NCBI GenBank assembly: GCA_964354805.1
Contig: CAYHBD010000009.1
Span: 91,538 to 155,537 of the forward strand
Length of the DNA: 64,000 nt
From: an uncultured archaeon
Lineage (GTDB): Archaea; Iainarchaeota; Iainarchaeia; Iainarchaeales; GCA-2688035
Direction of reading: 5' to 3'
The first letter of the stretch is position 1. Every line of letters starts with the position of its first letter. Under the pieces are notes generated by a model. That model was not told the DNA's origin. It did not search any database and saw nothing but the letters and a program-made list of their open reading frames with translations. A program made the position numbers and the translations under genes. Shown piece by piece: positions 3,371 to 57,634 of this stretch.

Positions 3371-3391
3371 TTTTGTTGGTTGGAAAAAAAA

Positions 3392-3534
3392 ATCCATAGT
3401 TTAAACAAAATGAAAGAAAAAAAAAAGGCAATTTCCGCAGGTGAAAAAATCAGTAGTTGGTTAAAGTGAAAGAAAAAGATGGTAATTCCGGCAGGTGAAA
3501 AAAATGTATAGTTTGGTTAAAGTGAAAGACAAGG
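3392..3534 (+). repeat. Three diverged tandem copies (~45-50 bp) of the rpoE start region. The two upstream copies encode rpoE-N-terminus-like peptides with ATG mutated to ATC.
   Basis: Units: atccatagtttaaacaaaatgaaagaaaaa / atcagtagttggttaaagtgaaagaaaaag / atgtatagtttggttaaagtgaaagacaag. Confidence 0.7.
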
Positions 3535-4145
3535 TGAGGGTTCCGCCAAAGCAGTTCACATCAAAATTGGAGAAAAGCGTTCTTGGTATGGTTCAGCAGG
3601 AATACGAAGGCCTTGTTGATGAGGACATCGGCCTTGTTGTAGCCGTGACAAATGTCAGCAATGTAGGGGAAGGCATTGTTGTGCCAGGAGACGGCAGTGC
3701 ATACTATGACACGGAAATTGAAATGCTTGTATACAAGCCGCTGATGCACGAAGTGGTTGAAGGAAACATTAGTGAAATAACAGAGTTCGGCGCATTCGTA
3801 AGAATAAGCCCGATTGAAGGATTAATCCACGTTAGCCAGATAATGGATGACTTCATAAACTATGATGCGAAAACCCCTTCATTCGTTGGAAAGAAAACAA
3901 GAAAGAAGCTGATTGTCGATGACAGCGTTATTGCAAGGATTGTAACAATTTCCTTGAAGGGAAACATCCAGAACAGCAAAATCGGCCTGACAATGAGGCA
4001 GCCTTTCCTCGGAAAAGAGGACTGGATCAAAATGGACGAAAAAACAATCGGAAAAGACATTGGAAAAGAGCGAAAGGAGAAGCACGACAAGAGACAAAAA
4101 AGCGACAGGGACGAGAAAAAAGAGCAAGCACAAAAAGGGGGATAA
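3495..4145 (+). CDS. rpoE: DNA-directed RNA polymerase subunit E' (Rpo7/RpoE1) with an S1 domain and a K-rich C-terminal tail; the track start is GTG, and ATG at 3504 is the likely true start
   Basis: MYSLVKVKDKVRVPP... N-terminus, and an S1-like domain (GAFVRISPIEGLIHVSQIMDDF) typical of Rpb7/E'. Confidence 0.85.
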   Translation: MKKMYSLVKVKDKVRVPPKQFTSKLEKSVLGMVQQEYEGLVDEDIGLVVAVTNVSNVGEGIVVPGDGSAYYDTEIEMLVYKPLMHEVVEGNISEITEFGAFVRISPIEGLIHVSQIMDDFINYDAKTPSFVGKKTRKKLIVDDSVIARIVTISLKGNIQNSKIGLTMRQPFLGKEDWIKMDEKTIGKDIGKERKEKHDKRQKSDRDEKKEQAQKGG

Positions 4146-12345: not shown

Positions 12346-13272
12346 ATGAAGCAAGAAAGAAAGCCGCGCTGGAAAATGACTGATGCCGAGAAGAGCAGAG
12401 CCTGGAAAACCAAGGATAACAGTTCCACTCAATTTTACAGTGGCAGGGCTGCTATGCGCACTGAAACGAAATTGATTTTTTTGGTTGCATTGATTGCAGC
12501 TTTTGCGCTTGGCTTGTTTACTGCCTCTTATTTGCAGCCTTCTTCAATTCCAAGCGTTATTCTGAAGCAATTGCCTGCTGCTGAAAAGTTTGAGAGCAGC
12601 ATTAACATTGTTGCCGCAAGGACACAGGGCGAAGTGGGTGTTGTAAGCCAGGCGACAGCTGAAATCATTGAAGGAAAGGGCAGGGTGCTGTTTTCCTTGA
12701 ACCCGTTTGTTGAGCCTGACACCCAGCAGAGCGCTGAAACAGCTGTTGCTGTTGCACAGCAGTTCACCGGGAAGAGCCTTGCAGACAGGGATGTAATTTA
12801 CGGAATTGAGAACATTGATGCGCAATTGGTTGGAGGACCAAGCGCTGGCGCAGCGCTTACTGTTGCAACAATTGCCGCGCTGGAGGGAAAAAAGGTAAGG
12901 GAAGATGTAGCAATCACTGGAACAATTCAGGCAGACGGCTCAATCGGCCAGATTGGCGGAGTGATTGAAAAAGCAAGCGCATGCGCTGAAACAGGCTTGC
13001 GCCTGTTTTTGGTCCCAAAGGGGCAAATGAATTTAACCTATTATGAGCAGCAGGTGCAGGAGGAAAAGCACGGCTTTGTCACAATCCAGAGAATCAGGTA
13101 TATTCCAAAAACACTGAATCTGAGTGACTATGCAAAAGAGCAGGGCTGGAGTTTGGAAGTAAAGGAAGTAAGCAACATTCAAGAGGCAGTAAATTACCTG
13201 ATTGAACAAAAGGGGCACGTAAAGAAATGCAGCGAAAAGACTGGCAGTGAATTACCTGATTGCCCAAATTAA
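12346..13272 (+). CDS. Membrane-anchored Lon-like S16 peptidase domain protein, with no AAA+ module
   Basis: One N-terminal TM, then GGPSAGAALTVATIAAL (catalytic Ser) and the downstream Lys of the Lon proteolytic domain. Confidence 0.7.
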   Translation: MKQERKPRWKMTDAEKSRAWKTKDNSSTQFYSGRAAMRTETKLIFLVALIAAFALGLFTASYLQPSSIPSVILKQLPAAEKFESSINIVAARTQGEVGVVSQATAEIIEGKGRVLFSLNPFVEPDTQQSAETAVAVAQQFTGKSLADRDVIYGIENIDAQLVGGPSAGAALTVATIAALEGKKVREDVAITGTIQADGSIGQIGGVIEKASACAETGLRLFLVPKGQMNLTYYEQQVQEEKHGFVTIQRIRYIPKTLNLSDYAKEQGWSLEVKEVSNIQEAVNYLIEQKGHVKKCSEKTGSELPDCPN

Positions 13273-13407
13273 TGCTACATAACGGGTGTTTGGCTTTTCA
13301 AAAACCCCCCAAAAAAAGAAATTTATAAAAGCAAAAACGCCCTAATTTTAATGCATTTTTTGCCTTAAAATGCTTGATTTTTGTGCCTCGCCCACAATAT
13401 TTTGCGG

Positions 13408-14748
13408 CTATTTGTTTAATTTTAGTTTATTTAATATATAATATATTGGGAGGCTTGCTGCGAAGGCGATTAGGGCAAAGCCCATTAAAAGAGGCGGGAA
13501 TTGCAGCAGCATTGCAAGGCAGGTTATTGCACCAAAAAAAGGCAGTATGGGAAACCTGCCTATTGAAAGCGGCGTTTTGAAGGTTCTTTTTGCATTTGGC
13601 TTTGCATAGCGCAGCGCAACAACGCAGCAGTTGACTGCAAAGAAAATCAGGAAAATCCCCAAATTTGAGAGGGATGCAACTGATTTGATGTCGCCAATTA
13701 AAGCGAATGCCATTGCAAAAACCATTGTCAGAATAACTGCGATATAAGGGGTTCCAGCCTTGGGATGGATTCTGCGCAAAAAAGCAGGCAGGCATTTTTC
13801 CTCGCTCATTCCGAAAATCCGCCTGCTTACCGAAATCAGGGCAATCAGCACAGTGTTTGCTGTTGAGCACAGAGCAATCAATGCAAGCAAAGTGAACGCG
13901 TCAGGGCCAAATGCCTTTTGCGCAACCGAAGCAATCGGGGCGCTGCTCTGGCTCAGCTGCTGCCAGCCCAGAACGCTTACAGCCGATATTGAAACTAGGA
14001 TATATAAAACAGTTGAAATAGCAAGGCTCAAAAGCATGGCAATGGGGATTGTCCGCTTCGGGTTCCTCGTTTCCTCGGTTACATTCGCAAGGTCCTCAAA
14101 GCCGATGTAAGCGAAGAAAATCAATGCAGCTGCGCCTGCAACAGGCTGCAGAAAATCAAAGATATTTGCGGCAGCATTCGGGGTTTCAAAATAATTCACC
14201 GAGCCGAAAAAAGGCAGGCCGATTGCGATTATTATCAATAACCCAGCCAGTTCAATTGAAGTTAAAACAGTGTTGAACCTCGCTGACTCCTTCATTCCGA
14301 TGAAATTCACAACTGAAAGAACGGCAATCAGGCCGAGCGCCGCTGGCAGAAAAAAACCCGGAAAAAACTTGGTGAAATAGCCTGCAAAGCCGAGCGAAAC
14401 AGTTGCAGCGCACAAAATTCCCGCAGCCAAAGCAATCCAGCTGACAAAAAAAGCCAGGCTGTTTCTCTTGAAAGCGCTCTGCATGTAAACATACTCTGCC
14501 GCTTCTCGCGGAAACATGCCGCTCAATTCAGCATAGCTCAAGGCAGTGAAACCTGCTATAATTGCGGAAACAACAAAACTCAGCCACAAGGCGTTCCCGG
14601 CAATGCCTGCACCCTGCCCAATCAAAACATAAATTCCCGCCCCAAGGATAATTCCAATTCCGTAAAGGGTTGCCTCAAACAAGCCAATGTTCCGCTTCAA
14701 ATGCGGCTTGAAAATCCTCGGATGCGGCTGATGCAAAGGATGCCTCAA
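13408..14748 (-). CDS. APC-family amino acid permease
   Basis: About 12 predicted TM helices. N-terminal LFEATLYGIGIILGAGIYVLIG and FPREAAEYVY motifs are typical of the APC superfamily. Confidence 0.8.
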   Translation of the reverse strand: MRHPLHQPHPRIFKPHLKRNIGLFEATLYGIGIILGAGIYVLIGQGAGIAGNALWLSFVVSAIIAGFTALSYAELSGMFPREAAEYVYMQSAFKRNSLAFFVSWIALAAGILCAATVSLGFAGYFTKFFPGFFLPAALGLIAVLSVVNFIGMKESARFNTVLTSIELAGLLIIIAIGLPFFGSVNYFETPNAAANIFDFLQPVAGAAALIFFAYIGFEDLANVTEETRNPKRTIPIAMLLSLAISTVLYILVSISAVSVLGWQQLSQSSAPIASVAQKAFGPDAFTLLALIALCSTANTVLIALISVSRRIFGMSEEKCLPAFLRRIHPKAGTPYIAVILTMVFAMAFALIGDIKSVASLSNLGIFLIFFAVNCCVVALRYAKPNAKRTFKTPLSIGRFPILPFFGAITCLAMLLQFPPLLMGFALIAFAASLPIYYILNKLKLNK

Positions 14749-14809
14749 AGCAAAAAACCCCTCGGCTCTTTCAAAACCCCATTAAGGCAATACATTGAAA
14801 ACCGCCCCT

Positions 14810-15364
14810 TCACTTCTTTCTGTACCATGCAGTGTACCTGTACAGCCAGTAGAACAAGGCAAGGACAACAATTGCAACAATTGCATTCAGAACAGTTGTA
14901 ACAGGCGGGTAGATATTCCTCTGTTCCCAAGGAATCAATTCAAAGTCAGGCTCAAAAAAAGCATAGGCGGCAATAACCACTGCAGCAACAAACATCAGCT
15001 GAATGAAAAAAAGCGCTGTTGCCTGCTGGTCCTTTGCCTTGCGCAGCTTTTCCTTTGCAGCCTGCTTTATTGTTGCACCAGCCATCTTTTGGGCAGCAAA
15101 CAAAGCAGGGTGCTTTTTCTTGACAGCAAAATACATTGCAACAATCAGAACAAGAATAAAAGCAAGCAAAACATACTCAATAGGCTCCCTGCTCAAGCTG
15201 AACTGAAAAGGGTGTTCAGAAAAAACCCGCAAGCCAAACAAATAAAGCAGCTGGTAAACAAAAAGAATCACCAAAACAATCTGGGCAAACAAAAAAGCAA
15301 TTGCCCTCCGCTGCTCCCTAATCGTCTTCCGCCTGATTCTAATCATGCTATAAAAGAACAGCAT
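14810..15364 (-). CDS. Hypothetical membrane protein (3-4 TM)
   Basis: Hydrophobic helices alternate with basic loops. The overlapping plus-strand ORF 14795..15430 is low complexity and was rejected. Confidence 0.4.
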   Translation of the reverse strand: MLFFYSMIRIRRKTIREQRRAIAFLFAQIVLVILFVYQLLYLFGLRVFSEHPFQFSLSREPIEYVLLAFILVLIVAMYFAVKKKHPALFAAQKMAGATIKQAAKEKLRKAKDQQATALFFIQLMFVAAVVIAAYAFFEPDFELIPWEQRNIYPPVTTVLNAIVAIVVLALFYWLYRYTAWYRKK

Positions 15365-15451
15365 TCGAGTATAAAAATTTTAAGGAAAGGAAAAACTGCC
15401 TGCAAAATTGCAATTGCAAAGGTTTTTTAGGAAAAACAACAATAAGTTTTT

Positions 15452-16759
15452 ATGAATCCAAGAAGAACTGCCACAAGAACAAAGAAAAAGCTGGTTATGT
15501 TAACTGGAACCGCGCAGCCCAGAGAAGACCTAAGAAGGCTTGTTGCATGGCATAGCCTTGAACAGCCGGAACATGTGCTCAGGGTTGCTTCAAGCAAAAG
15601 GCTGCAACAGGCAAGCCAAGCCTGGGCAAAAAAATTTCCTGGAATAGGAAGGAGAATTGCAAAAACCCCACCACCTGAAAGGCTTCGGGCAATGCAAAAA
15701 ATTGAACAGCTTGGAATACGCCAAGTGGAAAATGCACTGCGAAAAGGCTTTGCTTTGAAAGAGGTGCTGAACTATCCAACAAGGGTAGAGCTCGCTGCTT
15801 TTATCCGCAGGACAACACCTGAAAGAGTGAAAATCCTCAGTGGCTTTGGCTTAAACGAAATCAATGCAAAAAACCTCTGCATATTGTTTGAGTGGCAGAG
15901 CCCTGAAAATATCCGCCAATTTTTTTCAGAATTGCGGAGAACAAGCATTGACCCAAACACGCTGAGCCCAAAACAGTATACCCAGTTTTATTCAACCGGA
16001 AAATGCGATTTGCTTGATTTTGAAACACCAAAAGATAAAAGACTAAGAGTGTTAGGCCACACTTCCAGGAGCGTTATTGCCTCCACTAAGCCAATAACGC
16101 GATTTGTAGACTTCAGAAGGCACGGCAGGGCGCTTTTTTCAAAGAACTTCGCCTTTTCAGAAAACCTGCGGCAATCGCTTGCAGAAAAAGGAATTGCTGC
16201 ATTTGGTTTTTCTGCAAAAGTGAGAAAGATCGTAAGCTCGAATCCCCTTGTAGGTTTCCCCGACAGGCATGCGTTTTACTTGGAAGTGCCGGAAATCGCT
16301 GACCTTTTGAGGGAAGCAAGGCCAAAAAGGCAGCACCTTCGCAATGCGCTTGCATTTGCGGACGTAACATTGATTCCAACACAAAAATACATTCACATCT
16401 ATGAATTGCAGTCAGATATTGTAGGAAAGCTGAGAGAGCCGAACAGGGAAAAATACAAAAGCTGGGCTGAACTCACTGTTCTTGGCTTGGCAGATTTTGC
16501 CGCAAAAAACGGCTACGAGTTTATGGACCTCTCAAGCCCACACATAATAAAACAAGTCTGGCCCCATCTTGGCAGAGAACTAACGCAAAGGCTCTACTAT
16601 GATTTGCCCAAAAAAATGGGTTTTGAACTTTTCAAAAGAAAAACAGCAGTACAACACTATGACAGCGCCTTTGGAGAACAGCAGTTTGGAAAAAGCAATA
16701 TTGTATGGCGAGTTGAAATAAATACCCTCAAGAAAAAGTTCCCAGAATTCTTCACCTAA
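15452..16759 (+). CDS. Hypothetical protein (435 aa)
   Basis: Long ORF with balanced composition and no recognised motif. Confidence 0.4.
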   Translation: MNPRRTATRTKKKLVMLTGTAQPREDLRRLVAWHSLEQPEHVLRVASSKRLQQASQAWAKKFPGIGRRIAKTPPPERLRAMQKIEQLGIRQVENALRKGFALKEVLNYPTRVELAAFIRRTTPERVKILSGFGLNEINAKNLCILFEWQSPENIRQFFSELRRTSIDPNTLSPKQYTQFYSTGKCDLLDFETPKDKRLRVLGHTSRSVIASTKPITRFVDFRRHGRALFSKNFAFSENLRQSLAEKGIAAFGFSAKVRKIVSSNPLVGFPDRHAFYLEVPEIADLLREARPKRQHLRNALAFADVTLIPTQKYIHIYELQSDIVGKLREPNREKYKSWAELTVLGLADFAAKNGYEFMDLSSPHIIKQVWPHLGRELTQRLYYDLPKKMGFELFKRKTAVQHYDSAFGEQQFGKSNIVWRVEINTLKKKFPEFFT

Positions 16760-16767
16760 GGGGCTTA

Positions 16768-16873
16768 TTCCTCAATTTTTATCCCGAACTCTTCATCAAT
16801 CTCTTTTGCGGTTTTCTTCACTCGTCAATTTTTATCCCGAATTCCTCATCTATTTCCTTTGCGGTTTTCTTCA
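16768..16873 (-). repeat. Tandem duplicate (2 x 53 nt) of the 3' end of the regulator gene. The extragenic copy encodes KKTAKEIDEEFGIKIEE-stop versus the genic KKTAKEIDEEFGIKIDE-stop.
   Basis: All 8 nucleotide differences fall at third codon positions in the copy's own frame, and the stop is retained (TGA to TAA). Confidence 0.8.
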
Positions 16874-17258
16874 TCCGCTGGAAAATCCTCTCAATGTCTT
16901 CCTCAATCTCCTCAATTGTTCGAAACATTGACCTGCTTCTCGGCAGATAAAAGCGCCCCTCTCGAACAACAAGACCAGAGCGCAGCATATTGTTCAAATG
17001 GTTTATTACGCTTCCCCTGCTCATCTCAACCCTCTTTGCAAGAGCAGTGGAAGTCAGGGGCTTGCTTCGCTCAGCTCCCTTAATGATTTCCTTGAAAACA
17101 CTAGCTGCTGTCTTCTCCCTGTCAATAGGTTCAAAAAAGCCGAGGCAGTTGCACAGCCAGTCAAGCTCTTTGTCAATGCCGTGGCTGAAAGGCTTTTCCA
17201 CCCTTCTCACAACAATCTTGAAAGAAGCCCTCCTGACGGTTTTTGGTTCCGGGCTCAT
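16818..17258 (-). CDS. Winged-helix transcriptional regulator divergent from grpE-dnaK-dnaJ (possible heat-shock operon regulator); the probable start is MSPEPK
   Basis: LTSTALAKRVEMSRGSVINHLNNMLRSGLVVREGRFY wHTH. An AT-rich divergent intergenic region separates it from grpE. Its 3' end is tandemly duplicated at 16768..16820. Confidence 0.5.
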   Translation of the reverse strand: MSPEPKTVRRASFKIVVRRVEKPFSHGIDKELDWLCNCLGFFEPIDREKTAASVFKEIIKGAERSKPLTSTALAKRVEMSRGSVINHLNNMLRSGLVVREGRFYLPRSRSMFRTIEEIEEDIERIFQRMKKTAKEIDEEFGIKIDE

Positions 17259-17349
17259 AAAATAATAAGAAAAGGAAAGCAATTTAAACATTTTGTTTAA
17301 GAAAATATGTAAATGATTAAATAATTTAGACATTTGGCAGTGATTTTGC

Positions 17350-26783: not shown

Positions 26784-29174
26784 TTGCATATGGACCTTGA
26801 TTTCCACAAAATAGAGCAAAAATGGCAGGCGCACTGGGAAAAGAATAAGATATACAAATTCAACCCAAAAAGCAAGCAGCCTGTTTACAGCATAGACTCA
26901 CCGCCGCCGACTGTTTCTGGGACAATGCACCTGGGGCACGCATTTGCATTCACCCAGCAGGACTTCATTGCACGCTACAAAAAAATGCGCGGTTTCAACG
27001 TTTTCCACCCGTTCGGCTTTGATAACAACGGCCTGGCAACAGCGCTGATGGTTGAAAAAAAGCTTGGAATAAAACAGAAGAATTTCCAGAGAGACGAATT
27101 CATCAAAATCGTTCTGAAGGAAACAGCGGAAGAAGAGCGCAAGATGCTTGCAGCATTCAAAAGCATTGGATTAAGCGTTGACTGGAGCCTTTTATACAGG
27201 ACAATTGATGAGCTTGCAAGGAAAACAGCGCAATACAGCTTCCTTGATTTGTTCAAGCAGGGCAGGCTTTACCAGAAAGACGCTCCAACAATGTGGTGCC
27301 CGAGCTGCGAGACAGCGGTAGCACAGGCAGAGCTTGAGGACAGGGAAATTGAAAGCACCTTCAACGACATTGTTTTCAAAACAGAGCAGGGAAAAGAGGT
27401 AATAATTGCAACAACAAGGCCGGAATTGCTGCCTGCGTGTGTTGCTGTTTTCGTTCACCCAAGCGATGAAAGATTCAATCACTTGGTTGGAAAAAAATTA
27501 AAGGTGCCGTTGTTTGATTTGCTTGTTCCAGTGCTTGAGGACCAGAGAGCAGACCCTGAAAAAGGGACAGGAATTGTAATGTGCTGCACTTTCGGAGACC
27601 AGACAGACATGGAATGGTATCAGGCGCACAACCTGCCAATGAGGGTTGCAATAACAAAAGACGGCAGAATGAACGAACTCGCGGGAAAATTCAAAGGCAT
27701 GACTCTTGTTGAAGCAAGGAAAGCGGTTATTGAGGATTTGCGCAAAGAAGGTCTGCTTAAAGCACAAAAGCCGATAAAGCACGCTGTGAATGTTCATGAG
27801 AGATGCAAAACAGAAATGGAGATTCTGCCAAGCAAACAGTGGTTTATACACTACCTTGACTTGAAAGACGAGTACATAGTGAAAGCCGATGCATTGCAAT
27901 GGGTTCCAAAATTCATGAAATCAAGGTATGACAACTGGATCAAGGGATTGCAGTGGGACTGGTGCATTTCAAGGCAGCGCTATTATGGTGTGCCGTTCCC
28001 GGTATGGTACTGCAAGAAATGCGGAGAGGTAATGCTGGCTGAAGAAAAGCAATTGCCTGTTGATCCCCTAAAAGACAATCCCTTAAAGAAATGCAAGTGC
28101 GGAAGCGGCGAATTTGTTGGGGAGAAAGACACTCTTGACACATGGTTCATTTCATCGCTCACTCCGCAGATCAACTGCAAATGGGCCGAGGATTCCGCTT
28201 TCTTCAAAAAAATGTTCCCAATGGATTTGAGGCCGCAGGGACATGACATTATTGCATTGTGGGCGTTCAACACAATTGTCAAAGCATTGTTCCACCAGCA
28301 GCAGCTGCCCTGGAAAACAATTACAATAAACGGCTGGGCGCTTGATTCCAAAGGAAAAAAGATGTCAAAGAGCCTGGGCAATGTAATAAAGCCAGAGGAA
28401 ATGATCCAGAAATACTGCGCTGACGCACTGCGCTACTGGGCAGGCCTGCCTGTATTGGGAGAGGACGTTCCATTCATGGAAAAGGAAATGGTTGCGGGAA
28501 AAAAGTTTTTGGTGAAACTGCACAATGCCGCAATGTTTGTTGCAAACTCAACAAAAGGCGTGAAAATCGGGAAAATCAATAAAAAGGAATTAATGCCTGA
28601 GGACAAAGCGATTTTGAGCAAGCTGAACAGGCTGATAAAAGAATGCACTGATGCCTGTGAAAGGTTTGAGTTCAGCAAGGCACTGAATCCAGCAAGGAAT
28701 TTCTTCTGGCTGCAGTTCGCTGACTTTTACATTGAGGAAGTTAAAACAAGGGTTTACAACAAAAAAGACAAAAGCGGGAAAATAGCTGCAGCCATATTGC
28801 AGGAAGCAATTTGGGATTGCCTGCTTTTGCTTGCGCCATTTTTGCCGCACACAACGGAGGAAATAGCGCAGACAATGTTCAAGCACAAGCTGAAAGAGGA
28901 AAGCATTCATTTGCTACAATGGCCCTCGGCAGATGAAAAAATGATTGATGAAAAAGCAGAGCAAACAGGCGAACTGATTAATGAGGTCATTGCAGCAATG
29001 AGGAAAGAGAAAAGCAAAGCGCAAAAGCCGATGAATGCGGAAGTGCAAAAAGCAATTGTTTCATTGGCTGAACCGGAAAAGCTAAAGGAAGGGCTTGACA
29101 CTATTAAAAGGACAATGAACCTAAAGGAAATTGAATTAAAGAAAGGCGAGTTGGCAGTTGAATTGGAATTCTGA
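26784..29174 (+). CDS. valS: Valyl-tRNA synthetase (class I, archaeal type)
   Basis: SPPPTVSGTMHLGHA (PPP + HxGH), WDWCISRQRYYGVP, KMSKSLGNVI. The 796-aa length fits a compact ValRS better than IleRS or LeuRS. Confidence 0.7.
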   Translation: MHMDLDFHKIEQKWQAHWEKNKIYKFNPKSKQPVYSIDSPPPTVSGTMHLGHAFAFTQQDFIARYKKMRGFNVFHPFGFDNNGLATALMVEKKLGIKQKNFQRDEFIKIVLKETAEEERKMLAAFKSIGLSVDWSLLYRTIDELARKTAQYSFLDLFKQGRLYQKDAPTMWCPSCETAVAQAELEDREIESTFNDIVFKTEQGKEVIIATTRPELLPACVAVFVHPSDERFNHLVGKKLKVPLFDLLVPVLEDQRADPEKGTGIVMCCTFGDQTDMEWYQAHNLPMRVAITKDGRMNELAGKFKGMTLVEARKAVIEDLRKEGLLKAQKPIKHAVNVHERCKTEMEILPSKQWFIHYLDLKDEYIVKADALQWVPKFMKSRYDNWIKGLQWDWCISRQRYYGVPFPVWYCKKCGEVMLAEEKQLPVDPLKDNPLKKCKCGSGEFVGEKDTLDTWFISSLTPQINCKWAEDSAFFKKMFPMDLRPQGHDIIALWAFNTIVKALFHQQQLPWKTITINGWALDSKGKKMSKSLGNVIKPEEMIQKYCADALRYWAGLPVLGEDVPFMEKEMVAGKKFLVKLHNAAMFVANSTKGVKIGKINKKELMPEDKAILSKLNRLIKECTDACERFEFSKALNPARNFFWLQFADFYIEEVKTRVYNKKDKSGKIAAAILQEAIWDCLLLLAPFLPHTTEEIAQTMFKHKLKEESIHLLQWPSADEKMIDEKAEQTGELINEVIAAMRKEKSKAQKPMNAEVQKAIVSLAEPEKLKEGLDTIKRTMNLKEIELKKGELAVELEF

Positions 29175-29224
29175 AAAAAATTGAAGAAAGAAAAGGCGAG
29201 CTTGCGGTTGAAATGCAATTCTGA
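29130..29224 (+). repeat. Duplicate of the valS 3' end (14 codons plus stop) 50 nt downstream, frame-shifted relative to the gene
   Basis: IELKKGELAVELEF-stop versus IEERKGELAVEMQF-stop. Both end in ttctga. Confidence 0.7.
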
Positions 29225-30637: not shown

Positions 30638-32368
30638 ATGAGACGCAATCCCGCATTTTTTGTAATTGCTTTTCTTGCAGCATTTTTGCTAGTGAGCAAT
30701 GGCTGCTATGCCCAAGCCTTTGAGCATTCGCTCCATTTTTTTCAAATCAGGTATGGTGACAGTATGGGGGAGCCTCTTCCAGCCGGCAAAGTTGAGTTCA
30801 CAATCGGGCCTAATGCATATGACGGCTTGCTGCAGTATGCGTATGTATCGTTTATGACAATTACCCCCCAGGAAAATGTTAGTAGGGGAGATGCTCCGGG
30901 TTATGTTGTTTCACTTGACCCGAGTGAAATAGACACTGTATACAGCCAAAAAGGATACTGGCGGGGCAACGTATATCGGGTAGATAAAAATGAGCTGCAA
31001 ATAGCGGATATTCAAAAAATACACAAAGAATTAAATCCAAGCGATCCGGCATTATATTTTGGCGCTGAGTTGGATGCCAGCGAGAAACCAGCCAAGCCCG
31101 CTGGCTTAACAGATGCGGATTATCAGAATGGCAAAACAATTGTTGTTCCAGCAAGATATAATAATGATGTACCGTTCCAGAGAAGGTTTTTTTTTAATTT
31201 AAATGCCGAGGCAGTGAGAGAATACATGATCCTGTACGCGTTAAAGCAAGCTGGGTCAAAAAACATTTTTGTTGATGGTGCTTTTGTTAGTAACTGCCAG
31301 ATTTGTGTTAATTGCGGTTTTTATTCAGGTGGGGAATGTCCTAAAGGAGAATTAGGAGAATCAAAAGAATTGCATTATATTTCCAACGAGAGCGCTTCTA
31401 GTCAAATAATTACTTACACCTCGCAAATAAATGGCATCCTCAACAAAATAAAGGGCAGCCGACAGATTATACTTAATGGCTTTAGTTTAAGCCAATCCCA
31501 CCCATCTACCGCAGAAGTGCTTCGTTGGCTGTTGGATCATGGTTCCACTAATTTTGATGGAATAATGCTGGAAAACGGATTTTGGGGAGATGATCAGTTT
31601 TATGCCACTGATTTTTCTGCCAACGGGGGGCATGGCAATAACTGCATTGAGCCCTGGAAGTATCAAGGATTGGGCTACAGGGATCATATATGCACTGATA
31701 TCGAATATTATAGGAAGTATATATTGGAGTTAAAGAACACGAACAAGAAATTTTTGTTTGTAGCTGGAAGTGATGTTGAAGGCCACCCAGATTATTTAAA
31801 ATTTGCTATAGGCAACCCTTTGATTGAAGATATATGGCTGTGGTTTCACCTTATTGCAAGCCAAAACACCTATTTCTATATCACGCAGACTACCCAAGAG
31901 CCAATGCTAAATTACCCAGTCTACGATTCTCCTTTGGGGGTGCCCTTAGAAGAAGAGGGGCCCAGCAAAGATGGCAATACCTGGTCCAGAGAATACGAAA
32001 GAGGCACAGTTGTTTTTGACACAACAAAAGGCTGCATAAGTGAAATCAAATTCATTGAAAAAGAAATATGCGACGGCAAAGACAACGACGGCGATACCCT
32101 TATCGATGAAGACAATGTCTGCTGCAACAACGGGCAATGCGATGCTGGCGAAACAGTTACAACATGCCCGCAAGACTGCAAGTGTGGCAATACCCTATGC
32201 GATGCAGGCGAAACATTTGAAACCTGCCCAGAGGATTGCCAAGAATGCGTTGATAACGAAAAACTAGTAGGCGACTACATCCCCAAATGGAAAAGGGGAG
32301 AAATAACCATGCTTGTGCTGATGCAGAAAATCGCGGCACGAAACGCAGGAACAGGATGCCCGCAATAA
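30638..32368 (+). CDS. Secreted protein, family member A of the 'WKRGEI-tail' family. Signal peptide with Cys near the cleavage site, a putative carbohydrate-active/TIM-like core, two Cys mini-modules, and the conserved C-terminal tail.
   Basis: Signal MRRNPAFFVIAFLAAFLLVSNGC. C-terminus CKCGNTLCDAGETFETCPEDCQECVDNEKLVGDYIPKWKRGEITMLVLMQKIAARNAGTGCPQ. Conserved upstream element at 30597..30637. Confidence 0.7.
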   Translation: MRRNPAFFVIAFLAAFLLVSNGCYAQAFEHSLHFFQIRYGDSMGEPLPAGKVEFTIGPNAYDGLLQYAYVSFMTITPQENVSRGDAPGYVVSLDPSEIDTVYSQKGYWRGNVYRVDKNELQIADIQKIHKELNPSDPALYFGAELDASEKPAKPAGLTDADYQNGKTIVVPARYNNDVPFQRRFFFNLNAEAVREYMILYALKQAGSKNIFVDGAFVSNCQICVNCGFYSGGECPKGELGESKELHYISNESASSQIITYTSQINGILNKIKGSRQIILNGFSLSQSHPSTAEVLRWLLDHGSTNFDGIMLENGFWGDDQFYATDFSANGGHGNNCIEPWKYQGLGYRDHICTDIEYYRKYILELKNTNKKFLFVAGSDVEGHPDYLKFAIGNPLIEDIWLWFHLIASQNTYFYITQTTQEPMLNYPVYDSPLGVPLEEEGPSKDGNTWSREYERGTVVFDTTKGCISEIKFIEKEICDGKDNDGDTLIDEDNVCCNNGQCDAGETVTTCPQDCKCGNTLCDAGETFETCPEDCQECVDNEKLVGDYIPKWKRGEITMLVLMQKIAARNAGTGCPQ

Positions 32369-39640: not shown

Positions 39641-39843
39641 ATTGTCACCAAAAACAATTTTTAGTTTTCTCTCCAAATTCCAAAAAATCTCCTAAAAAAA
39701 TTTTAGTTTTCTTTCCAATTTCCCAAAAATCACCCAAAAAAAATTTTGATTCCACCTAATTTCCCAAAAATGCCAACCTCAAATTACCCCAAAAAAAAAT
39801 TTTAATTTCCACCCACTTCCAAAAAACCTTTTTCCCAAATCAC
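39641..39843 (-). repeat. Four degenerate tandem ~40-55 bp units between the secF stop and the secD start, each ending in a T7-T9 run (oligo-T terminator-like)
   Basis: Minus-strand units begin GGTGATTT(T)TGGGAAA... or GGGGTAATTTGAGG..., and each ends in AAAATTTTTTT(TT). Confidence 0.6.
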
Positions 39844-40983: not shown

Positions 40984-41086
40984 GGCTTAAAAAAAGCTTA
41001 TAACAATAAATTAACTAAAGAATTATTTAAAAAGGTTGGGAAAGAATGAGGCTGCAATCGATTGGAACAAAAGGGGGTGAAAAGCA

Positions 41087-42160
41087 ATGAGGCTGCAATT
41101 GGCATTTCTTCCGCCGCAAAAGGAATTGCTTGAGATAGCTTTCAGCAGGGCAAGAAAGCAGGCGGAAAAAATTGGCGGGCAAGGGACCAAGCTGCAGAAA
41201 TCAAAGCAAAAAGCAACCCAAAAAATCATCACAAGCGCGGCTTACTTCACCGAAAAGCTGCAGCAGGCTGTCCAAGGATTCCCCTCAATGCAAAAACAGC
41301 ACCCTTTCTACAGGGAGCTAATTGAGGCAACTGTTGATTTGGATGCAATGCTCAGGGCCCTTGGCCAAATGAGCGCTGCCAGGAGAATAACCGACAGGCT
41401 GAAAGGGCAGTACATCGGAAAAATCAGGTCCCTTGGAAAGGGAGAGGAAAAAAAAGCGGCTGACCTTGTAAGCGGATTCTACGGCAGGCTTGCATCGCTT
41501 GCAAAAACCATGGACAAAGGGATTACAGCATACAACGAGAACGCGAAAAAAATGCTGGAGCTGCCAAACATAAGATTTGATTTGCCGACGGCAATAATCG
41601 CAGGCTATCCGAACACAGGCAAAACAACAATCCTAAGCAGGCTCACAAAAAGCAAGCCAAAAATAGCTGCATACCCATTCACAACACAGTATCTGCAAAT
41701 AGGATACCTTGTGCAAAACTATCTGGAATTCCAGCTGATTGACACCCCTGGCTTGCTTGACAGGCCTCTTGAGAAAAGAAACAAAATTGAAAGGAAAGCG
41801 ATTGCTGCCCTGCGGCACCTTGCAAATGCCATAATTTTCGTTGTTGACCCGACAACAAGGTGCGGATTTGAACTTGAAAAACAAGCGAATTTGTTCAAAG
41901 AGATTGCAGAAGAATTCAAGGAAACAAAAATTTTGATTGTCTTAAACAAAGCTGACATCGCAAGCAAAGAGGAAATGCATGCTGCGAAAGAAGCATTCGG
42001 CAAAGCTACAATAGTGGAAGGGCAAGGCATCCACTCCAAACTGCGGGAAAAAATCGCAGAAGCGCTGAAGGAAAGAACCGAACCAACGCAGCAGGAAAAG
42101 GAGGCGGAATCAACGGAAGAAAAGAATACAAGCGAGAGCCAAGGCAAGGCAATTGGTTAA
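41087..42160 (+). CDS. nog1: NOG1-family GTP-binding protein (archaeal Nog1 homolog)
   Basis: IAGYPNTGKTTIL (G1), FTT (G2), IDTPGLLDRP (G3), LNKAD (G4), and an N-terminal NOG1 helical domain. Confidence 0.75.
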   Translation: MRLQLAFLPPQKELLEIAFSRARKQAEKIGGQGTKLQKSKQKATQKIITSAAYFTEKLQQAVQGFPSMQKQHPFYRELIEATVDLDAMLRALGQMSAARRITDRLKGQYIGKIRSLGKGEEKKAADLVSGFYGRLASLAKTMDKGITAYNENAKKMLELPNIRFDLPTAIIAGYPNTGKTTILSRLTKSKPKIAAYPFTTQYLQIGYLVQNYLEFQLIDTPGLLDRPLEKRNKIERKAIAALRHLANAIIFVVDPTTRCGFELEKQANLFKEIAEEFKETKILIVLNKADIASKEEMHAAKEAFGKATIVEGQGIHSKLREKIAEALKERTEPTQQEKEAESTEEKNTSESQGKAIG

Positions 42161-42199: not shown

Positions 42200-44353
42200 A
42201 TGAAACCCAACAGGGCGGTTTTTGCGATTGCCTTTGCAGCAGCATTCCTGCTCGCAAGCACAAATTGCTACAGCGTGCAACCTGAAAAAGTGTCTTTGGA
42301 GGGGGAAGATTTCATTTTCACTTTTTGGCCGATTTACATAAGCGGATGCACACAGCAAAAACTGGACGACCCTAACAGTATCGCGAGCAAAAGAATGCAG
42401 GGAATTGACACAATGATGGACCCTAGTATAGGAATGACCCATGCAGGCATACATTTCGTGGCCCTTCCCACTGATGAAAATCCATGTTTAACGAATCTTA
42501 AGAATATTAAAAAATACAAGCTGGCTTTAGAAATTAGCGCAGGGCATGGTAGATTAAATGAGGGGCGTACAGAATTAGCTGACATTAAGTGGCCAGCCGA
42601 GTATTTAAACACGGACAAGGGAAAGCAGTTTCTCAAGGCGCCCTGCCTGTGCAATAATTGCACTATCACTGAAGAGATTGCAAACAATTGGTCTGATTAC
42701 GTTGACAAAGAAAGGTGCGGGGATTGGAACAACAATCGTGCACTAGACCCTTCATATACCGGCATATTATGGCAGAATACTTTGAATAATACAAAGGATG
42801 TTGTAGCAAAGGCTCAGCCTGAAATTGTTTTATTTGACACTGAACTATGGCTTAGGCCAGGAGCCATAGACACGGATTTTTATGGGGATACTGATTGCCA
42901 GTGCATGCTTCTTCAAAAGGCCTTTGGATATGATGGATGCGGAACACAACCACCTTGCAACAGGTATGATTATTACCAAAAGAACCCGCTATGCTGCCAA
43001 TATGACCGCTATATTTCTGCCTGGAGGCAGCGCGGGCTTGAGCTGAAAGCGGCAGTTCAATCAGTTTCTTCAGCAAAAGTTTCTTTTTACGACGAAATTC
43101 CAGCAAATGGAAGAAGATATGTTCAGACCTATACCGGGGCGTACTGGGATAATTATGACACAATTGGAGCAATGCCAAGCGGCGTTAGCGACTACCCATC
43201 GCCTTATTTGTACATTGTTCCAAATTTAGAGGTTTTTGAAAAAAACACGCCCTATCTTTCTGGCACAGTCCCCTGGGTCAGCTATACTCACATGATGGGG
43301 TACAGCAATTTCAATGAGCAAAAAGCAGATGTGTACTTTGATCCAAGCGTGAGCAGGGAAGCCGGGCGAATGCTAAGGGAAGCTGGGGCAAAAGGGTTCA
43401 TAGTTTACCCAAACGGCCAAAACATGGAGGAAAGGACTGCTGGAGAGAAGTATTGGCAACACTATGGGAAACAGGGCTATGATTATTGGCTGGCGCATGC
43501 CAAGGAAATGATTGCAGGATTCAACGAAGAACCAACATATGTTGAGAAAAACAAGATTAGGAACAGTGATTTTGAGGCATTCAGGGCAGTAACTAAAGAA
43601 TATAAAAAGGGGGCGGGAATGTCCCATACTAGCAGCCAATTGGTTGGGCAAACACAGTTTGCGCCTGTTTTTTGGTTTTGGCAGGATTCAAGCCCAAATT
43701 ACAACGACATTAATAATGCGGCATTTAGCAATTTGGTTTATGATGACTCGCTGCAAGAATACCTTAAAGTCCCTGATGCTCAACCGTACAAGAATTTTGT
43801 TTTCGCCGATGTTAAGAGCGGAAGCGTTGCCTGGAAGCATTCAAGGAACGGCGAGCCAGGCAGCAGAACCATTTTGTCAAAAACATTCTCAATTGGGGCT
43901 GCTGAGGAAGGAAAGTATAAGTTTTCCATTTGGACAAAAGCAAGCCTTGATTCTGCTAACGGCAAAATTGAATTCTTTTTAGTGAACACAAGCACTTTGG
44001 CAGAGCAAAAACTCGGCGAAACAGGCTTTGAAACAAGCTGGAAAGAATTCAAAAAATATGCAAACATGGCAGTTGGAGACTACAACGTAAAAATACTAAT
44101 AAATGACCAAACAGGGCAAGCAATTGACATATTTCTTGACAAAGCATCGCTGGAAAAAGCGGGGGAAGAATGCGGAAACACAATATGCGAAGCAGGCGAA
44201 ACTGTCTCATGCCCGCAGGATTGCCAAGAATGCATTGATACGCCGAAATTAATAGGCTACATTAGCCAGTGGAAAAGGGGAGAAATAAGCATGCTCACGC
44301 TGATGCAAAAAATGAAGCAATATAAAGCAGGAACAGGATGTCCGACGCAGTAA
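42200..44353 (+). CDS. Secreted protein, family member B of the 'WKRGEI-tail' family
   Basis: Signal MKPNRAVFAIAFAAAFLLASTNC, a large divergent core, and C-terminus CGNTICEAGETVSCPQDCQECIDTPKLIGYISQWKRGEISMLTLMQKMKQYKAGTGCPTQ. Conserved upstream element at 42159..42199. Confidence 0.7.
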   Translation: MKPNRAVFAIAFAAAFLLASTNCYSVQPEKVSLEGEDFIFTFWPIYISGCTQQKLDDPNSIASKRMQGIDTMMDPSIGMTHAGIHFVALPTDENPCLTNLKNIKKYKLALEISAGHGRLNEGRTELADIKWPAEYLNTDKGKQFLKAPCLCNNCTITEEIANNWSDYVDKERCGDWNNNRALDPSYTGILWQNTLNNTKDVVAKAQPEIVLFDTELWLRPGAIDTDFYGDTDCQCMLLQKAFGYDGCGTQPPCNRYDYYQKNPLCCQYDRYISAWRQRGLELKAAVQSVSSAKVSFYDEIPANGRRYVQTYTGAYWDNYDTIGAMPSGVSDYPSPYLYIVPNLEVFEKNTPYLSGTVPWVSYTHMMGYSNFNEQKADVYFDPSVSREAGRMLREAGAKGFIVYPNGQNMEERTAGEKYWQHYGKQGYDYWLAHAKEMIAGFNEEPTYVEKNKIRNSDFEAFRAVTKEYKKGAGMSHTSSQLVGQTQFAPVFWFWQDSSPNYNDINNAAFSNLVYDDSLQEYLKVPDAQPYKNFVFADVKSGSVAWKHSRNGEPGSRTILSKTFSIGAAEEGKYKFSIWTKASLDSANGKIEFFLVNTSTLAEQKLGETGFETSWKEFKKYANMAVGDYNVKILINDQTGQAIDIFLDKASLEKAGEECGNTICEAGETVSCPQDCQECIDTPKLIGYISQWKRGEISMLTLMQKMKQYKAGTGCPTQ

Positions 44354-44378
44354 TAGCATCGCAGCATTTCAATCAATT

Positions 44379-44419
44379 AAATTTTTATTAAAGAAAGCAC
44401 TTATTCTAATTGATTAAAA
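44379..44419 (+). promoter_or_regulatory. Conserved family upstream element, copy C
   Basis: aaatttttattaaagaaagcacttattctaattgattaaaa then ATG. Confidence 0.55.
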
Positions 44420-45871
44420 ATGAAAAAAACAATCAGGGCAATTGCCATCTTTGCATTACTTTTGCTTGCAAGCACAAATGGCAGCAGCGCAAAAAATAAT
44501 ATTTACGGTAGCGGCATAGATACAAATGGCTTGATGCCAATCAATGTTGATGACACCAATGTTAGCTATCGTTTCAGGGCAGAGCATTCAGGGTTGCTTG
44601 AAAGCGTTGCATTTTACCTTGTAATCAACAAGCCGTTGTACACTCAGGGCGATGGCGGGCATTTGCTGGTTGAATTACGAACTGATGATGGCACTGGAAA
44701 TCATTTTCCGTCCAACGAAGTTTTAGCATCACACTATATTGATAAACCAATGGATGGGCGCAGTTATCCCGGTTCTTTTGTTCCTTTACCAGGCAACCCT
44801 TCACCCTGCACTGGCAGCTCGTGCGGCGCTGCTTTCCCAAAAATTCCTTTAAATGCACAAATTGAAGAAGGAAAGCTTTACCACATTGTTTTTTCCAATA
44901 CGCACGCAGACAGCAGGAATAATTGGATGTCCCTGAATCTGCTTTGGGCTGACAGCACACCAATGCAGCCCATGTTTGATGACCTTGATTTTGCACTCCT
45001 TTTTTACGACAACTTCCACAAAACATGGACAACCAATAGCGAAACTCTTAGGACCCCAATATTAAGCGTAGATTACGTTGGTGGCAATTCGCAAGGGCAA
45101 GGCTACATAGAAGCGTGGACAAATGGCTCTGTTGCTATTGCAGGCGATAACAAAGTAAGGGAAAGATTTACTGTAAGCGGCAAGGACAGGCAGATATCAA
45201 AGGCATTTGTCAAGGTGCAAAAACCAGCTGGAACAAATCCAGGGGATTTAACATTCAAACTACAAAAAGATGACGGCACCATTATTGAAGAAGGCAATGT
45301 TGCCTCAGCCAGCATTAGTGAAGGAAGAATGCAATGGGCAAGCTATAGCTTCCGAGAGAAACACACATTAAAAGCAGGGGAAACATATGCCCTTGTTCTT
45401 GAAGCCCCACCCGGTGACTCATATAGTACTTTTGCAATTAGGGAAGGGGGAGATGTTGGATTGAACGGGGGTTTATTCAAAGACGGCAATGCATACTATA
45501 GTGATGACGGTGGACAGAGCTGGAAGGTGATTAGATACAGCGGATTTGATTTACAATTCTATTTTGAATTATCCTGCCCAAACGGAAACTGTGAGGAAGG
45601 GGAAAATTGTTTAACTTGCCCGCAGGATTGCCCCATATGCCAGCCCCAATGCGGCAACGGCACAGCGGACACTGGGGAAAACTGCTCAAGCTGCCCTGCA
45701 GACGTGCAGTGCGAAACAGGACAAGAGTGCATAGAAGGAACATGCACAGCAACGGAATGCATTAGGGAACCAGAGCTGCTCGGCTACATCAGCCAGTGGA
45801 AAAGGGGCGAAATAAGCATGCTCACGCTAATGCAAAAAATGAAACTATGGAGCACCGGAACAGGATGCTAA
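44420..45871 (+). CDS. Secreted protein, family member C of the 'WKRGEI-tail' family
   Basis: Signal peptide, a Cys-rich region CPNGNCEEGENCLTCPQDC..., and C-terminus ECIREPELLGYISQWKRGEISMLTLMQKMKLWSTGTGC. Conserved upstream element at 44379..44419. Confidence 0.7.
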   Translation: MKKTIRAIAIFALLLLASTNGSSAKNNIYGSGIDTNGLMPINVDDTNVSYRFRAEHSGLLESVAFYLVINKPLYTQGDGGHLLVELRTDDGTGNHFPSNEVLASHYIDKPMDGRSYPGSFVPLPGNPSPCTGSSCGAAFPKIPLNAQIEEGKLYHIVFSNTHADSRNNWMSLNLLWADSTPMQPMFDDLDFALLFYDNFHKTWTTNSETLRTPILSVDYVGGNSQGQGYIEAWTNGSVAIAGDNKVRERFTVSGKDRQISKAFVKVQKPAGTNPGDLTFKLQKDDGTIIEEGNVASASISEGRMQWASYSFREKHTLKAGETYALVLEAPPGDSYSTFAIREGGDVGLNGGLFKDGNAYYSDDGGQSWKVIRYSGFDLQFYFELSCPNGNCEEGENCLTCPQDCPICQPQCGNGTADTGENCSSCPADVQCETGQECIEGTCTATECIREPELLGYISQWKRGEISMLTLMQKMKLWSTGTGC

Positions 45872-45964
45872 CGCCAGCATAGCGCAGGCAATGAAAAGCA
45901 GGTGAAGGCTGCCCAATATAAAAATGGCTGCAAGGGGAAAAAGAATTGCAAAAACTGGGGCATT

Positions 45965-46003
45965 AAATTTTTATTCAAGAAAGACCTACTCTAATTGATT
46001 AAA
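45965..46003 (+). promoter_or_regulatory. Conserved family upstream element, copy D (runs into the TTG start)
   Basis: aaatttttattcaagaaagacctactctaattgattaaa. Confidence 0.5.
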
Positions 46004-48025: not shown

Positions 48026-48108
48026 CGCAGGCAATGAAAAGCAGGTGAAGGCTGCCCAATATAAAAATGGCTGTAAAGGAGAAAAAGAATTGCAAAAATG
48101 GGAGCAGT

Positions 48109-48147
48109 AGATTTTTATTCGAAAAAGACATACTCTAATTGATTAAA
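48109..48147 (+). promoter_or_regulatory. Conserved family upstream element, copy E (runs into the TTG start)
   Basis: agatttttattcgaaaaagacatactctaattgattaaa. Confidence 0.5.
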
Positions 48148-56250: not shown

Positions 56251-56362
56251 TTATTCTCCCATCAATTCCTTTTCCAAAACAGCCCTGAGTTTTTTTGTGC
56301 CGAAGGTTTTATTCTCCCATCAGCTCTTTTTCCAGCACAGCTCTTAATTTTTTCGCATCGAA
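56251..56362 (-). repeat. Duplicate of the orc1/cdc6 3' end (17 codons plus stop) immediately downstream of the gene
   Basis: Gene FDAKKLRAVLEKELMGE-stop versus copy FGTKKLRAVLEKELMGE-stop. 12 nt differences in 54 nt, 8 of them synonymous. Similarity ends exactly at the stop codons. Confidence 0.8.
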
Positions 56363-57634
56363 CCCGAGCTTTATGAGCGTGGTTGCTCCCCTTACTCCTT
56401 TTCCGCTTGCTGTTGTCAAAAGCAGCCCGTATGTGTCCAATTCATTGATGTATTCCCTGAACCATCTGCTGCTTACAACGCTTTCGTTCAGGGAGAGAGC
56501 AATGCGCTTGTATTCGTTGTAGATGTCACCGCTGCAGAAAACGCCTTCCTCGCTTTGGCCTGAACCTGTTATTCTCTGCATTCCTTTTCCCTGTGTTGTG
56601 AGCAGGGAAATCGCGTACAACACCAGCTGCTGCTGCTTTGGCAGGGTTGCAACCATGTTAAGGATGATTTCCTGTTCAACGCTTGTCTTTGCCTTTCTTA
56701 CCATGACATCAGTTACCTCGCTGAATTGCATTTTGTCCGCCTCTTCTCCGGCTCTAAGAAGCAGCATTATTGCTGTTCTTGCATCCCCTGTTTCCTGCGC
56801 TGCGATTGCGGATGCGAGGTTGATTGCGCTGCTGCTTACAGCGCCGGGCCTGAATGCCTTTGCAATCCTTTCCTGTAGGATTGCCTTGAGCTCTTCAGCG
56901 TTGTAAGGCGGGAAAACCATTTCTTTTTCCAAGAGTGCGCTTTTTGTTCTTGCATCAAGGCGCTCTTTGAAGAAAAGGTTGTTGCTTATTCCAAGGATGC
57001 TGATGCTACCGAATGGCAGCTCGTCGTTTGCCCTTGTAAGCGAGTAAACCAGTTCGTCCAAATCCTTGGCTTTGTCTATTTCATCCAGCACAATGATGAG
57101 GTTCTTTCCTTTTTCAGATGCCGCCTGCAGCAGTTTTTCGAACACAAAGGAAGCGCTGTATCCAATGAAGTCCTCTTTTGGATGGAATTTCTGCATTGCC
57201 TTGAGCAGAACCTTATATTTGCTGTTGTGGTTTCTGCAGTTAACGAAAGCGAAGTCAACTGGCGAATTGCTTTGCTCAATGAATTGCTGCAATTGCTGCA
57301 ATACGTGCTTTACAGTGACTGTTTTTCCTGTTCCGACTTTTCCGTAAATGAAAACATTGTCTGCTTTTTTCCCCTGCAGAGTTGCAGCAAGCGCTGTGCT
57401 GATTTGCTCGATCTGCTTTTGCCTGAATGGCAGGGCATCAGGGACATAGTGCGGGGAAATAATGTTTTTATCCAGAAAAACAGTGTGCTTTGTGATAAAC
57501 TGCTGGAAAATGTTCTGCTGCGGAAATGTTTCGTCCTGTAGTGAAACAATTTTTTTCTGCTGCAGCAATGTTTCGTTCTGCGCTGAAACAATTTTCTGCC
57601 CCAGTCCCACCAATGTCTGCTGTGCCACACCCAT
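56309..57634 (-). CDS. cdc6: Orc1/Cdc6 replication initiator (AAA+ and winged helix); the N-terminus contains an in-frame tandem 14-aa repeat and the true start is possibly internal
   Basis: FIYGKVGTGKTVTV Walker A, IVLDEID Walker B, a sensor region, and a C-terminal wHTH. An AT-rich candidate origin lies immediately upstream (57635..57980). Confidence 0.85.
   Translation of the reverse strand: MGVAQQTLVGLGQKIVSAQNETLLQQKKIVSLQDETFPQQNIFQQFITKHTVFLDKNIISPHYVPDALPFRQKQIEQISTALAATLQGKKADNVFIYGKVGTGKTVTVKHVLQQLQQFIEQSNSPVDFAFVNCRNHNSKYKVLLKAMQKFHPKEDFIGYSASFVFEKLLQAASEKGKNLIIVLDEIDKAKDLDELVYSLTRANDELPFGSISILGISNNLFFKERLDARTKSALLEKEMVFPPYNAEELKAILQERIAKAFRPGAVSSSAINLASAIAAQETGDARTAIMLLLRAGEEADKMQFSEVTDVMVRKAKTSVEQEIILNMVATLPKQQQLVLYAISLLTTQGKGMQRITGSGQSEEGVFCSGDIYNEYKRIALSLNESVVSSRWFREYINELDTYGLLLTTASGKGVRGATTLIKLGFDAKKLRAVLEKELMGE

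Follow-up and report, generated by a model that had tools for sequence, protein, structure and literature searches.

The 3′ end of a transcriptional regulator gene in an uncultivated archaeon is followed, with no intervening nucleotide, by a second copy of itself that carries its own stop codon. The origin that we favour, and regard as reasonably probable, is that this spare copy represents an orphaned (displaced) allelic 3′ end which arose by recombination between diverged alleles. The window, as the whole 64-kb stretch of DNA analysed will be referred to, also encodes PolD DP2 and Orc1/Cdc6, and its closest protein matches all belong to MAGs of the Diapherotrites/Iainarchaeum type (DPANN).

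The regulator tail and its spare copy

The regulator gene (16818..17258, minus strand; 146 aa, taken from the ORF list and Pfam) encodes a winged-helix protein of the ArsR/MarR/Lrs14-like type and is oriented divergently from the heat-shock operon grpE-dnaK-dnaJ. The protein matched the Pfam families HTH_20 and MarR_2, the NCBIfam match to Lrs14 was weak, and 260 homologues were found in Diapherotrites/Iainarchaeum. Frame reading and repeat finders identified the translated tail, (M)KKTAKEIDEEFGIKIDE, as repeat unit 1 (16821..16873, minus strand) and a spare tail, which reads KKTAKEIDEEFGIKIEE in its own frame, as repeat unit 2 (16768..16820, minus strand). Tandem Repeats Finder reported 16772-16873 with a period of 53, 1.9 copies, 89% matches and a score of 169, and a repeat search aligned 16769-16820 with 16822-16873 at 88% identity. 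Unit 1, read from 16873 to 16821, comprises the final 17 codons of the gene plus 2 nt. The two units are arranged head-to-tail with 0 nt between them, the regulator's own stop TGA (16820..16818) opening unit 2, and the frame of the spare copy is offset by 2 nt from that of the regulator. The gene ends in KKTAKEIDEEFGIKIDE-TGA and the spare copy in KKTAKEIDEEFGIKIEE-TAA; this TAA (16765..16767, minus strand), recognized by frame reading, is presumably the former stop codon of the regulator. A spacer of 5 nt (16760..16764) separates it from the stop codon of a convergent neighbour. An intact gene is followed here by a partial 3′ copy on the same strand with a stop of its own, which is the layout of a displaced 3′ end. 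The longest identical runs between unit 1 and unit 2 are 16-17 nt.

Within the 2 × 53 nt, seven differences were counted, and all seven are located at third codon positions; six of them are silent and one exchanges aspartate for glutamate (GAC/GAG). Re-reading of the minus strand reproduced exactly the codon differences and both peptides listed in the original prediction. Its statement that all eight differences occupy third positions holds for these seven, but the eighth, TGA/TAA, affects the second position of the stop codon. Likewise, the tandem head-to-tail arrangement was as described, but only seven of the eight differences lie inside the 2 × 53 nt, as the TAA (16767..16765) is located just beyond 16768-16873. 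Alignment of the regulator tail with its downstream DNA yielded a score of 74; a score of at least 38 was reached in 0 of 1604 reversed-sequence controls and in none of approximately 1600 controls in which each tail was aligned with the downstream DNA of another gene. For eight random substitutions, the probability that at least seven fall on third positions is P = 1e-3, and that of retaining the stop while altering no more than one amino acid is P = 1.5e-5.

The copies differ by silent or conservative changes, as diverged functional alleles do. These coding-type substitutions, a match of the Orc1 spare tail to the locus L165 and the signature known from icd/icdC (both described below) support in substance the earlier proposal that both copies gained their differences as translated gene ends, apparently in separate lineages. 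The more specific claim that the spare copy had been translated in another genome survives in part: divergence in a separate lineage is in agreement with the data, but the foreign copy is perhaps the one that is now translated.

The spare copy itself is probably non-functional. No Rfam match was obtained for it at E ≤ 1, folding gave z = 0.26, and no terminator-like site (hairpin plus T-run) was found, on which grounds a structured RNA and a terminator were both rejected. Frameshifting or readthrough into the spare copy was rejected as well, since a TAG and a TGA interrupt its frame inside the translated tail; ribosomes passing the regulator stop in frame would enter a frame different from that of the spare copy, and the same applies to Orc1.

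The junction in related lineages

The same junction was present in five other assemblies (JGI 3300035659, Logan SRR11721627, ENA ERZ27247700 and the JGI contigs Ga0315276 and Ga0315275), all of which read GACGAG-TGAAGAAAAC across it. The regulator protein on these contigs is 97-99% identical. DNA identity of the related contigs to the window amounts to 86-93% (~90%), and at the four-fold degenerate sites of dnaK and dnaJ approximately 27% differ between the window and L001 (related loci are numbered with the prefix L). These values demonstrate that distinct lineages are concerned and not one genome sampled repeatedly.

Around the junction, three lineages were compared, represented by the window, by L001-L003 and by L004/L023. 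Unit 1 is identical in L001, L004 and L023, and the translated tail together with the first 38 nt of the spare copy forms a nearly invariant 93-nt stretch that spans the junction, with two ACC/ACA changes in 93 columns; the 38 nt of the spare copy taken alone show 0-1 differences among the three lineages. In the last 19 nt of the spare copy, counted from a GGN codon and including the stop, 7-8 nt differ per pair (~40%). The spare copies end in GIKIEE-TAA, GIQVEE-TAG and GIRVEG-TGA, corresponding to G-I-(K/Q/R)-(I/V)-E-(E/G)-stop, the position of the stop being shared by the three lineages, and past the spare copy no homology among them was found. Variation among lineages affects 34 out of 128 upstream codons of the regulator gene, compared to 0 of its last 18.

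The uniformity of the translated tail and the adjoining 38 nt could be due to a recent spread of the two-tail allele via short recombination tracts into lineages whose own tail ends were retained, or a constraint could be responsible instead. A constraint on the spare copy might be argued from its higher conservation relative to four-fold sites, but this argument is weakened by the finding that alignable intergenic DNA diverges by just 6-13% and four-fold sites by 27-35% (window versus L001/L164; e.g., 17259-17349 and 57635-58040). Non-coding DNA in these genomes is either strongly constrained or mutating less.

The convergent neighbour (15452..16759, plus strand) encodes a protein of 435 aa to which no function was assigned. 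Domain profile searches yielded no family match for it, and its sole homologues (50-54% identity) are located in L167, L168 and L169. In these three distant relatives, the homologue is also convergent with the regulator gene, which carries a single tail, and the stop codons of the two genes are 0, 2 and 39 nt apart. In the window, the TAA of the spare copy is 5 nt and the real stop of the regulator 58 nt away from the stop of the 435-aa gene. The spare copy thus occupies the position of the true gene end of the relatives, beside the ancestral downstream DNA, and the translated 53 nt are the extra unit. A role of the 435-aa gene as a mobile element or recombinase that brought in the tail was rejected, as it has no family match and is an ancestral neighbour in distant relatives.

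Four configurations of the DNA 3′ of the spare copy were observed (window, L001, L004 and L023), marking the site as a strain-specific hot spot. L023 is without the 435-aa gene, and its spare copy runs directly into a homologue of window positions 15383..13271; L001 and L004 each have other DNA downstream of the spare copy. Taking together the ancestral spacing in the window and the contiguity of dnaJ spare copies with native downstream DNA in other loci (see below), the spare copy may be the tail that this lineage possessed originally, with the functional tail of today being the imported one.

Spare tails at other genes

A second tail repeat (29128..29224, plus strand, period 50) was found at a gene for a ValRS-type tRNA synthetase (26784..29174). 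The last 47 nt of this gene recur 3 nt past its stop, reading KEIELKKGELAVELEF-TGA in the gene and KKIEERKGELAVEMQF-TGA in the spare copy, and the 11 differences include a silent Leu exchange (TTG/CTT) and conservative replacements. A third repeat (56251..56362, minus strand, period 58) involves the Orc1/Cdc6 gene (56309..57634). Over its final 14 codons plus stop (KKLRAVLEKELMGE-TAA), eight nucleotide differences were counted, all of them silent; the full 54-nt repeat has 12 differences and two amino-acid changes, and the random-substitution probability for the Orc1 copies is P < 5e-6. The spare tails of Orc1 and ValRS have no usable start codon, and their frames are closed upstream by stops. 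In all three cases of the window, the junction is located 0-4 nt past the stop.

The Orc1 spare tail of the window is identical at 42 out of 45 positions to the functional tail of another Iainarchaeum lineage, L165, and at 37 out of 45 to the tail of its own gene. The L165 Orc1 gene is 71% identical overall to that of the window, and the tails of two other outgroups score 34 and 28. A duplicate with the same junction was detected in the ~90% identical relative L164 (GCA_053536015.1, positions 3605-3715), in which the central 21 nt of the two Orc1 copies are homogenised, pointing to gene conversion between them. In the same region, the orc1 N-terminal extension of the window contains an in-frame 42-nt tandem duplication (QKIVSAQNETLLQQ / KKIVSLQDETFPQQ; 57513-57595, minus strand). 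The PolD large subunit of L164 (5582-10456) has 1624 aa and contains an intein (Intein_splicing/LAGLIDADG matches), compared to 1148 aa and no intein in the window (52429-55875), and three extra genes including a nucleotidyltransferase gene are located between orc1 and polD in L164.

A survey of gene termini for tail duplicates, which the original prediction had called for, was performed with ORFs of at least 150 aa in ~1.7 Mb of related loci gathered via the regulator. Tail duplicates were detected at 13 out of 1391 ORFs compared to one out of 1416 internal control segments of the same size; the window accounts for three, in 46 ORFs. Four of the 13 matches (L001, L003, L004 and L164) are orthologous to events of the window, and nine are independent. 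Among the independent cases are the dnaJ genes of L119 and of the single-cell genome L109 as well as one gene in L085 and two in L135, and the regulator gene itself carries independent tail duplicates in L078 and L092. The regulator duplicate of L092 also provided a test for mutational bias towards third positions, an explanation that had been named as capable of overturning the prediction: its copies differ mostly at first and second positions, and since a spare tail decays in this manner, there is no general third-position mutational bias. Displaced fragments of more than ~60 nt were rare in the survey, possibly due to instability of long direct repeats.

Comparison of the dnaJ genes of L109 and L119 with the single-copy relatives L106 and L117 demonstrated that native downstream DNA directly adjoins the spare copy, and the spare copy of L109 keeps the TGA of L106. 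The novel insert consists of the translated copy and a hairpin-bearing spacer of 54-66 nt. The flanks of L109 and L106 are 86-88% and 95-96% identical in a background that is mosaic.

Spacers of 50-95 nt split the tail from the spare copy in L135 (7311-7404 and 15831-15890) and L085 (1429-1478), and likewise in L109 (6162-6227), L119 (1903-1956) and L078 (1224-1289). By eye, each of them contains one or two short hairpins. The copies so separated measure 29-40 nt and show 0-4 mismatches. No spacer is related to another, and no repeats of them were found elsewhere in the related loci (~20 kb per genome). A perfect 54-nt tail duplicate in L152 (1707-1810) lies around an N run and is probably a scaffolding artefact; in L078, which belongs to the same lineage, a genuine duplicate of 33 nt is separated by a spacer of 66 nt.

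Repeats of other kinds were also recorded in the window. At 41029-41099 (plus strand), a 5′ "head" duplicate repeats a Shine-Dalgarno-like motif and ATGAGGCTGCAAT of the gene 41087..42160, 41 nt upstream, and this upstream copy opens an ORF of 14 codons that ends in a TGA overlapping the genuine ATG (ATGA). Four tandem paralogous genes encoding 717, 483, 676 and 723 aa (42200-50310, plus strand) have in common units composed of 3′ end, intergenic region and 5′ end (86-134 nt, 77-87% identity), and 32138-32257 was listed along with this array. Cys-rich repeats of 60 nt (CxxGExxxxCPxDC) are located at 47729-47908 and in the gene 30638..32368. Intergenic A/T-rich tandem repeats were observed at 3386-3529 (56 nt, 2.6 copies) and at 39645-39832 (42 nt, 2.4 copies and a third degenerate copy).

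Origin of the spare copy

From sequence comparison we infer the recombination mechanism, the identity of the imported copy and the absence of a present function. According to the model we favour, two versions of the regulator tail would have diverged, while being translated, in Iainarchaeum lineages that are related but separate. Recombination between the alleles would then have been homologous on one side and closed by a non-homologous joint at TGA/TGAAG on the other, such that the resident tail was not replaced but came to lie next to the incoming DNA. The survivors would be only those products with a complete frame to a stop codon, which would account for the duplicate starting precisely where the gene ends. 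Of the two copies, the upstream one would be translated and the downstream one silent, the latter still appearing coding-like because it was coding until recently. Microhomology at the junction comprises TGA and possibly TGAAG (3-5 nt), the regulator stop being at the same time the start of the unit aTGAAGAAAACC. Homology-facilitated illegitimate recombination might be the mechanism; a duplication by slippage, after which the variable downstream DNA was exchanged homologously with the spare copy serving as an arm, would be equally compatible.

It counts against recombination between alleles that selection explains why junctions do not lie before the stop but not why they lie so close after it. 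The invariant tail plus 38 nt also counts against it, requiring a recent spread of the allele or a constraint beyond the recombination model. Further points against it are that the microhomology extends over just 3-5 nt and that displaced fragments exceeding ~60 nt are rare, which the model would have to attribute to instability of long direct repeats. Among 157 regulator loci, no donor allele was closer to the spare copy than the regulator's own tail; the best functional-tail match was 48/57.

Homology-facilitated illegitimate recombination is described for Acinetobacter, Streptococcus, Pseudomonas and E. coli. In this process, one homologous anchor is combined with a junction at a microhomology of a few bases, and an illegitimate joint upstream of the corresponding point places the donor and recipient versions side by side (PMC3240628, PMC5361080). 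Those events were obtained experimentally in bacteria by transformation or conjugation, whereas the process is inferred here for a DPANN archaeon with no donor found. At rhs, CDI and T6SS loci, an incoming 3′ end that includes some conserved gene sequence shunts the resident end to a silent spot downstream. The orphan tips retain their own stop and a portion of the conserved region, and proposals for the mechanism are homology-facilitated illegitimate recombination and a single crossover (PMC2935791, PMC5361080). The tips at those loci are, however, unrelated toxin domains with immunity genes, so that displacement changes function, and the orphans measure hundreds of bases. Here, the orphans measure 30-58 nt, the same peptide is encoded by both tails (with one D/E exchange), and the genes are housekeeping genes (regulator, Orc1, ValRS, DnaJ) in which nothing is diversified.

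The closest parallel in substitution pattern is found in E. coli K-12, in which the 3′ end of icd is supplied by the prophage e14 and the resident end is displaced as icdC (PMC6379469). We measured 12 differences in 165 nt between icd and icdC, 11 of them at third positions, and two amino-acid changes, both D->E. As at icd/icdC (e14, also phage 21), an intact gene is accompanied by an orphaned resident 3′ copy downstream in the same orientation, with differences nearly all at third codon positions. In contrast to the regulator tail, a 15-kb prophage bearing an integrase separates the icd copies through a site-specific event that can be reversed; at the regulator, the copies abut (0 nt), no element or integrase was seen, and the unit is 53 nt instead of 165 nt. 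Neither an element nor a new functional module lies between the copies or came with the incoming end, the peptide being the same in both tails, and the DNA between copies and the identical core that an att-site duplication by an integrase would leave are both missing.

The arrangement also resembles the TR/VR pairs of diversity-generating retroelements, in which a near-copy of a gene 3′ end is located just downstream. Such retroelements are common in DPANN archaea, and their mismatches are found at adenines of the template and affect the first and second positions of codons. This origin was rejected, as the seven mismatches correspond to three A in the spare copy, three A in the gene copy and one C/G, all at third positions. 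No reverse transcriptase was seen near the regulator repeat.

Several other origins of the spare copy have to be weighed against displacement of an allelic 3′ end. An improbable one is the scar of a site-specific integration, in which an element supplied the new tail and its body was later deleted. The substitution signature is the same as that of icd/icdC, the DNA past the spare copy is a strain-specific hot spot with four configurations, and the hairpin-bearing spacers of 54-95 nt at other loci are possible element remnants. Nevertheless, 0 nt remain between the regulator copies and 3-4 nt at ValRS and Orc1, and it is unlikely that three deletions should all have ended precisely at a stop codon. 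In addition, scans of immediate neighbours revealed neither an integrase nor a transposase domain, identical runs extend over only 16-17 nt, and the spacers are unrepeated in the related loci. The head-to-tail layout and the TGA microhomology at the borders might also be explained by slipped-strand tandem duplication with neutral decay, the third-position pattern then being due to chance or mutational bias. This is very unlikely in view of the probabilities given above for at most one amino-acid change (P = 1.5e-5) and for Orc1 (P < 5e-6), and of the L092 spare tail, whose decay at first and second positions argues against a general bias. That an assembler joined two strain variants of the gene end in tandem has a negligible probability. 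Silent differences are typical of strain variants, and the L152 duplicate does flank an N run, but the junction occurs in six assemblies from different pipelines and samples with lineage-specific downstream ends. With five other assemblies carrying the junction, an artefact is excluded for practical purposes.

The remaining alternative is an old tandem duplication in situ, whose second copy was kept by selection because it is translated as a micro-ORF. A hypothetical ORF of 18 codons, MKKTAKEIDEEFGIKIEE (16765..16821, minus strand; frame reading), would start with a GTG (16821..16819) overlapping the regulator TGA as GTGA, an overlap of the classic termination-reinitiation type. Its product, a free version of the regulator's C-terminus, could mimic this tail or compete with it for binding. 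Both the GTGA overlap and the open frame with the same stop position are present in all three lineages. Moreover, the spare copy varies like the real tail of the family, KKTAKEIDEEFGI being constant and the last four residues variable, and its first 38 nt are nearly invariant among the lineages. We still regard a selected micro-ORF as unlikely. No Shine-Dalgarno-like motif was detected by eye upstream of the GTG, and the spare tails of Orc1 and ValRS show the same coding-type divergence with no usable start codon, so that translation is not needed to explain the pattern of the regulator spare copy. Furthermore, the last 19 nt are ~40% different in lineages that are ~10% apart, and this break coincides with the loss of downstream homology, for which a recombination border is a better fit than evolution in place. 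Quite unlikely, too, is a function of the free 18-residue peptide as a selected decoy or competitor for the partner of the regulator tail, e.g., in a feedback on grpE-dnaK-dnaJ; apart from the initiator Met (GTG), the predicted peptide differs from the regulator tail by one D->E. In that case, the coding-like character of the copy in the three lineages would be maintained by purifying selection on the peptide and not by history alone.

Displaced 3′ gene ends as such are already known. What is new about the displaced allelic ends proposed here is their occurrence at housekeeping genes of a DPANN archaeon, with no intervening element and with function unchanged. For annotation and for dN/dS analyses, they argue for caution, as non-coding DNA can bear a perfect signature of purifying selection without being translated. 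Spare tails can be found by sequence alone, three in the 64-kb window and 13 at the 1391 ORFs of the related loci. If the recombination model is true, short orphaned tails would be molecular fossils of chromosomal exchange among related uncultivated Iainarchaeum lineages, in which some exchanges end in a non-homologous joint. They would then mark the borders of strain-variable gene islets and in principle preserve the allele of the other lineage, possibly providing usable markers for gene flow and for the ways in which uncultivable organisms repair and recombine their DNA.
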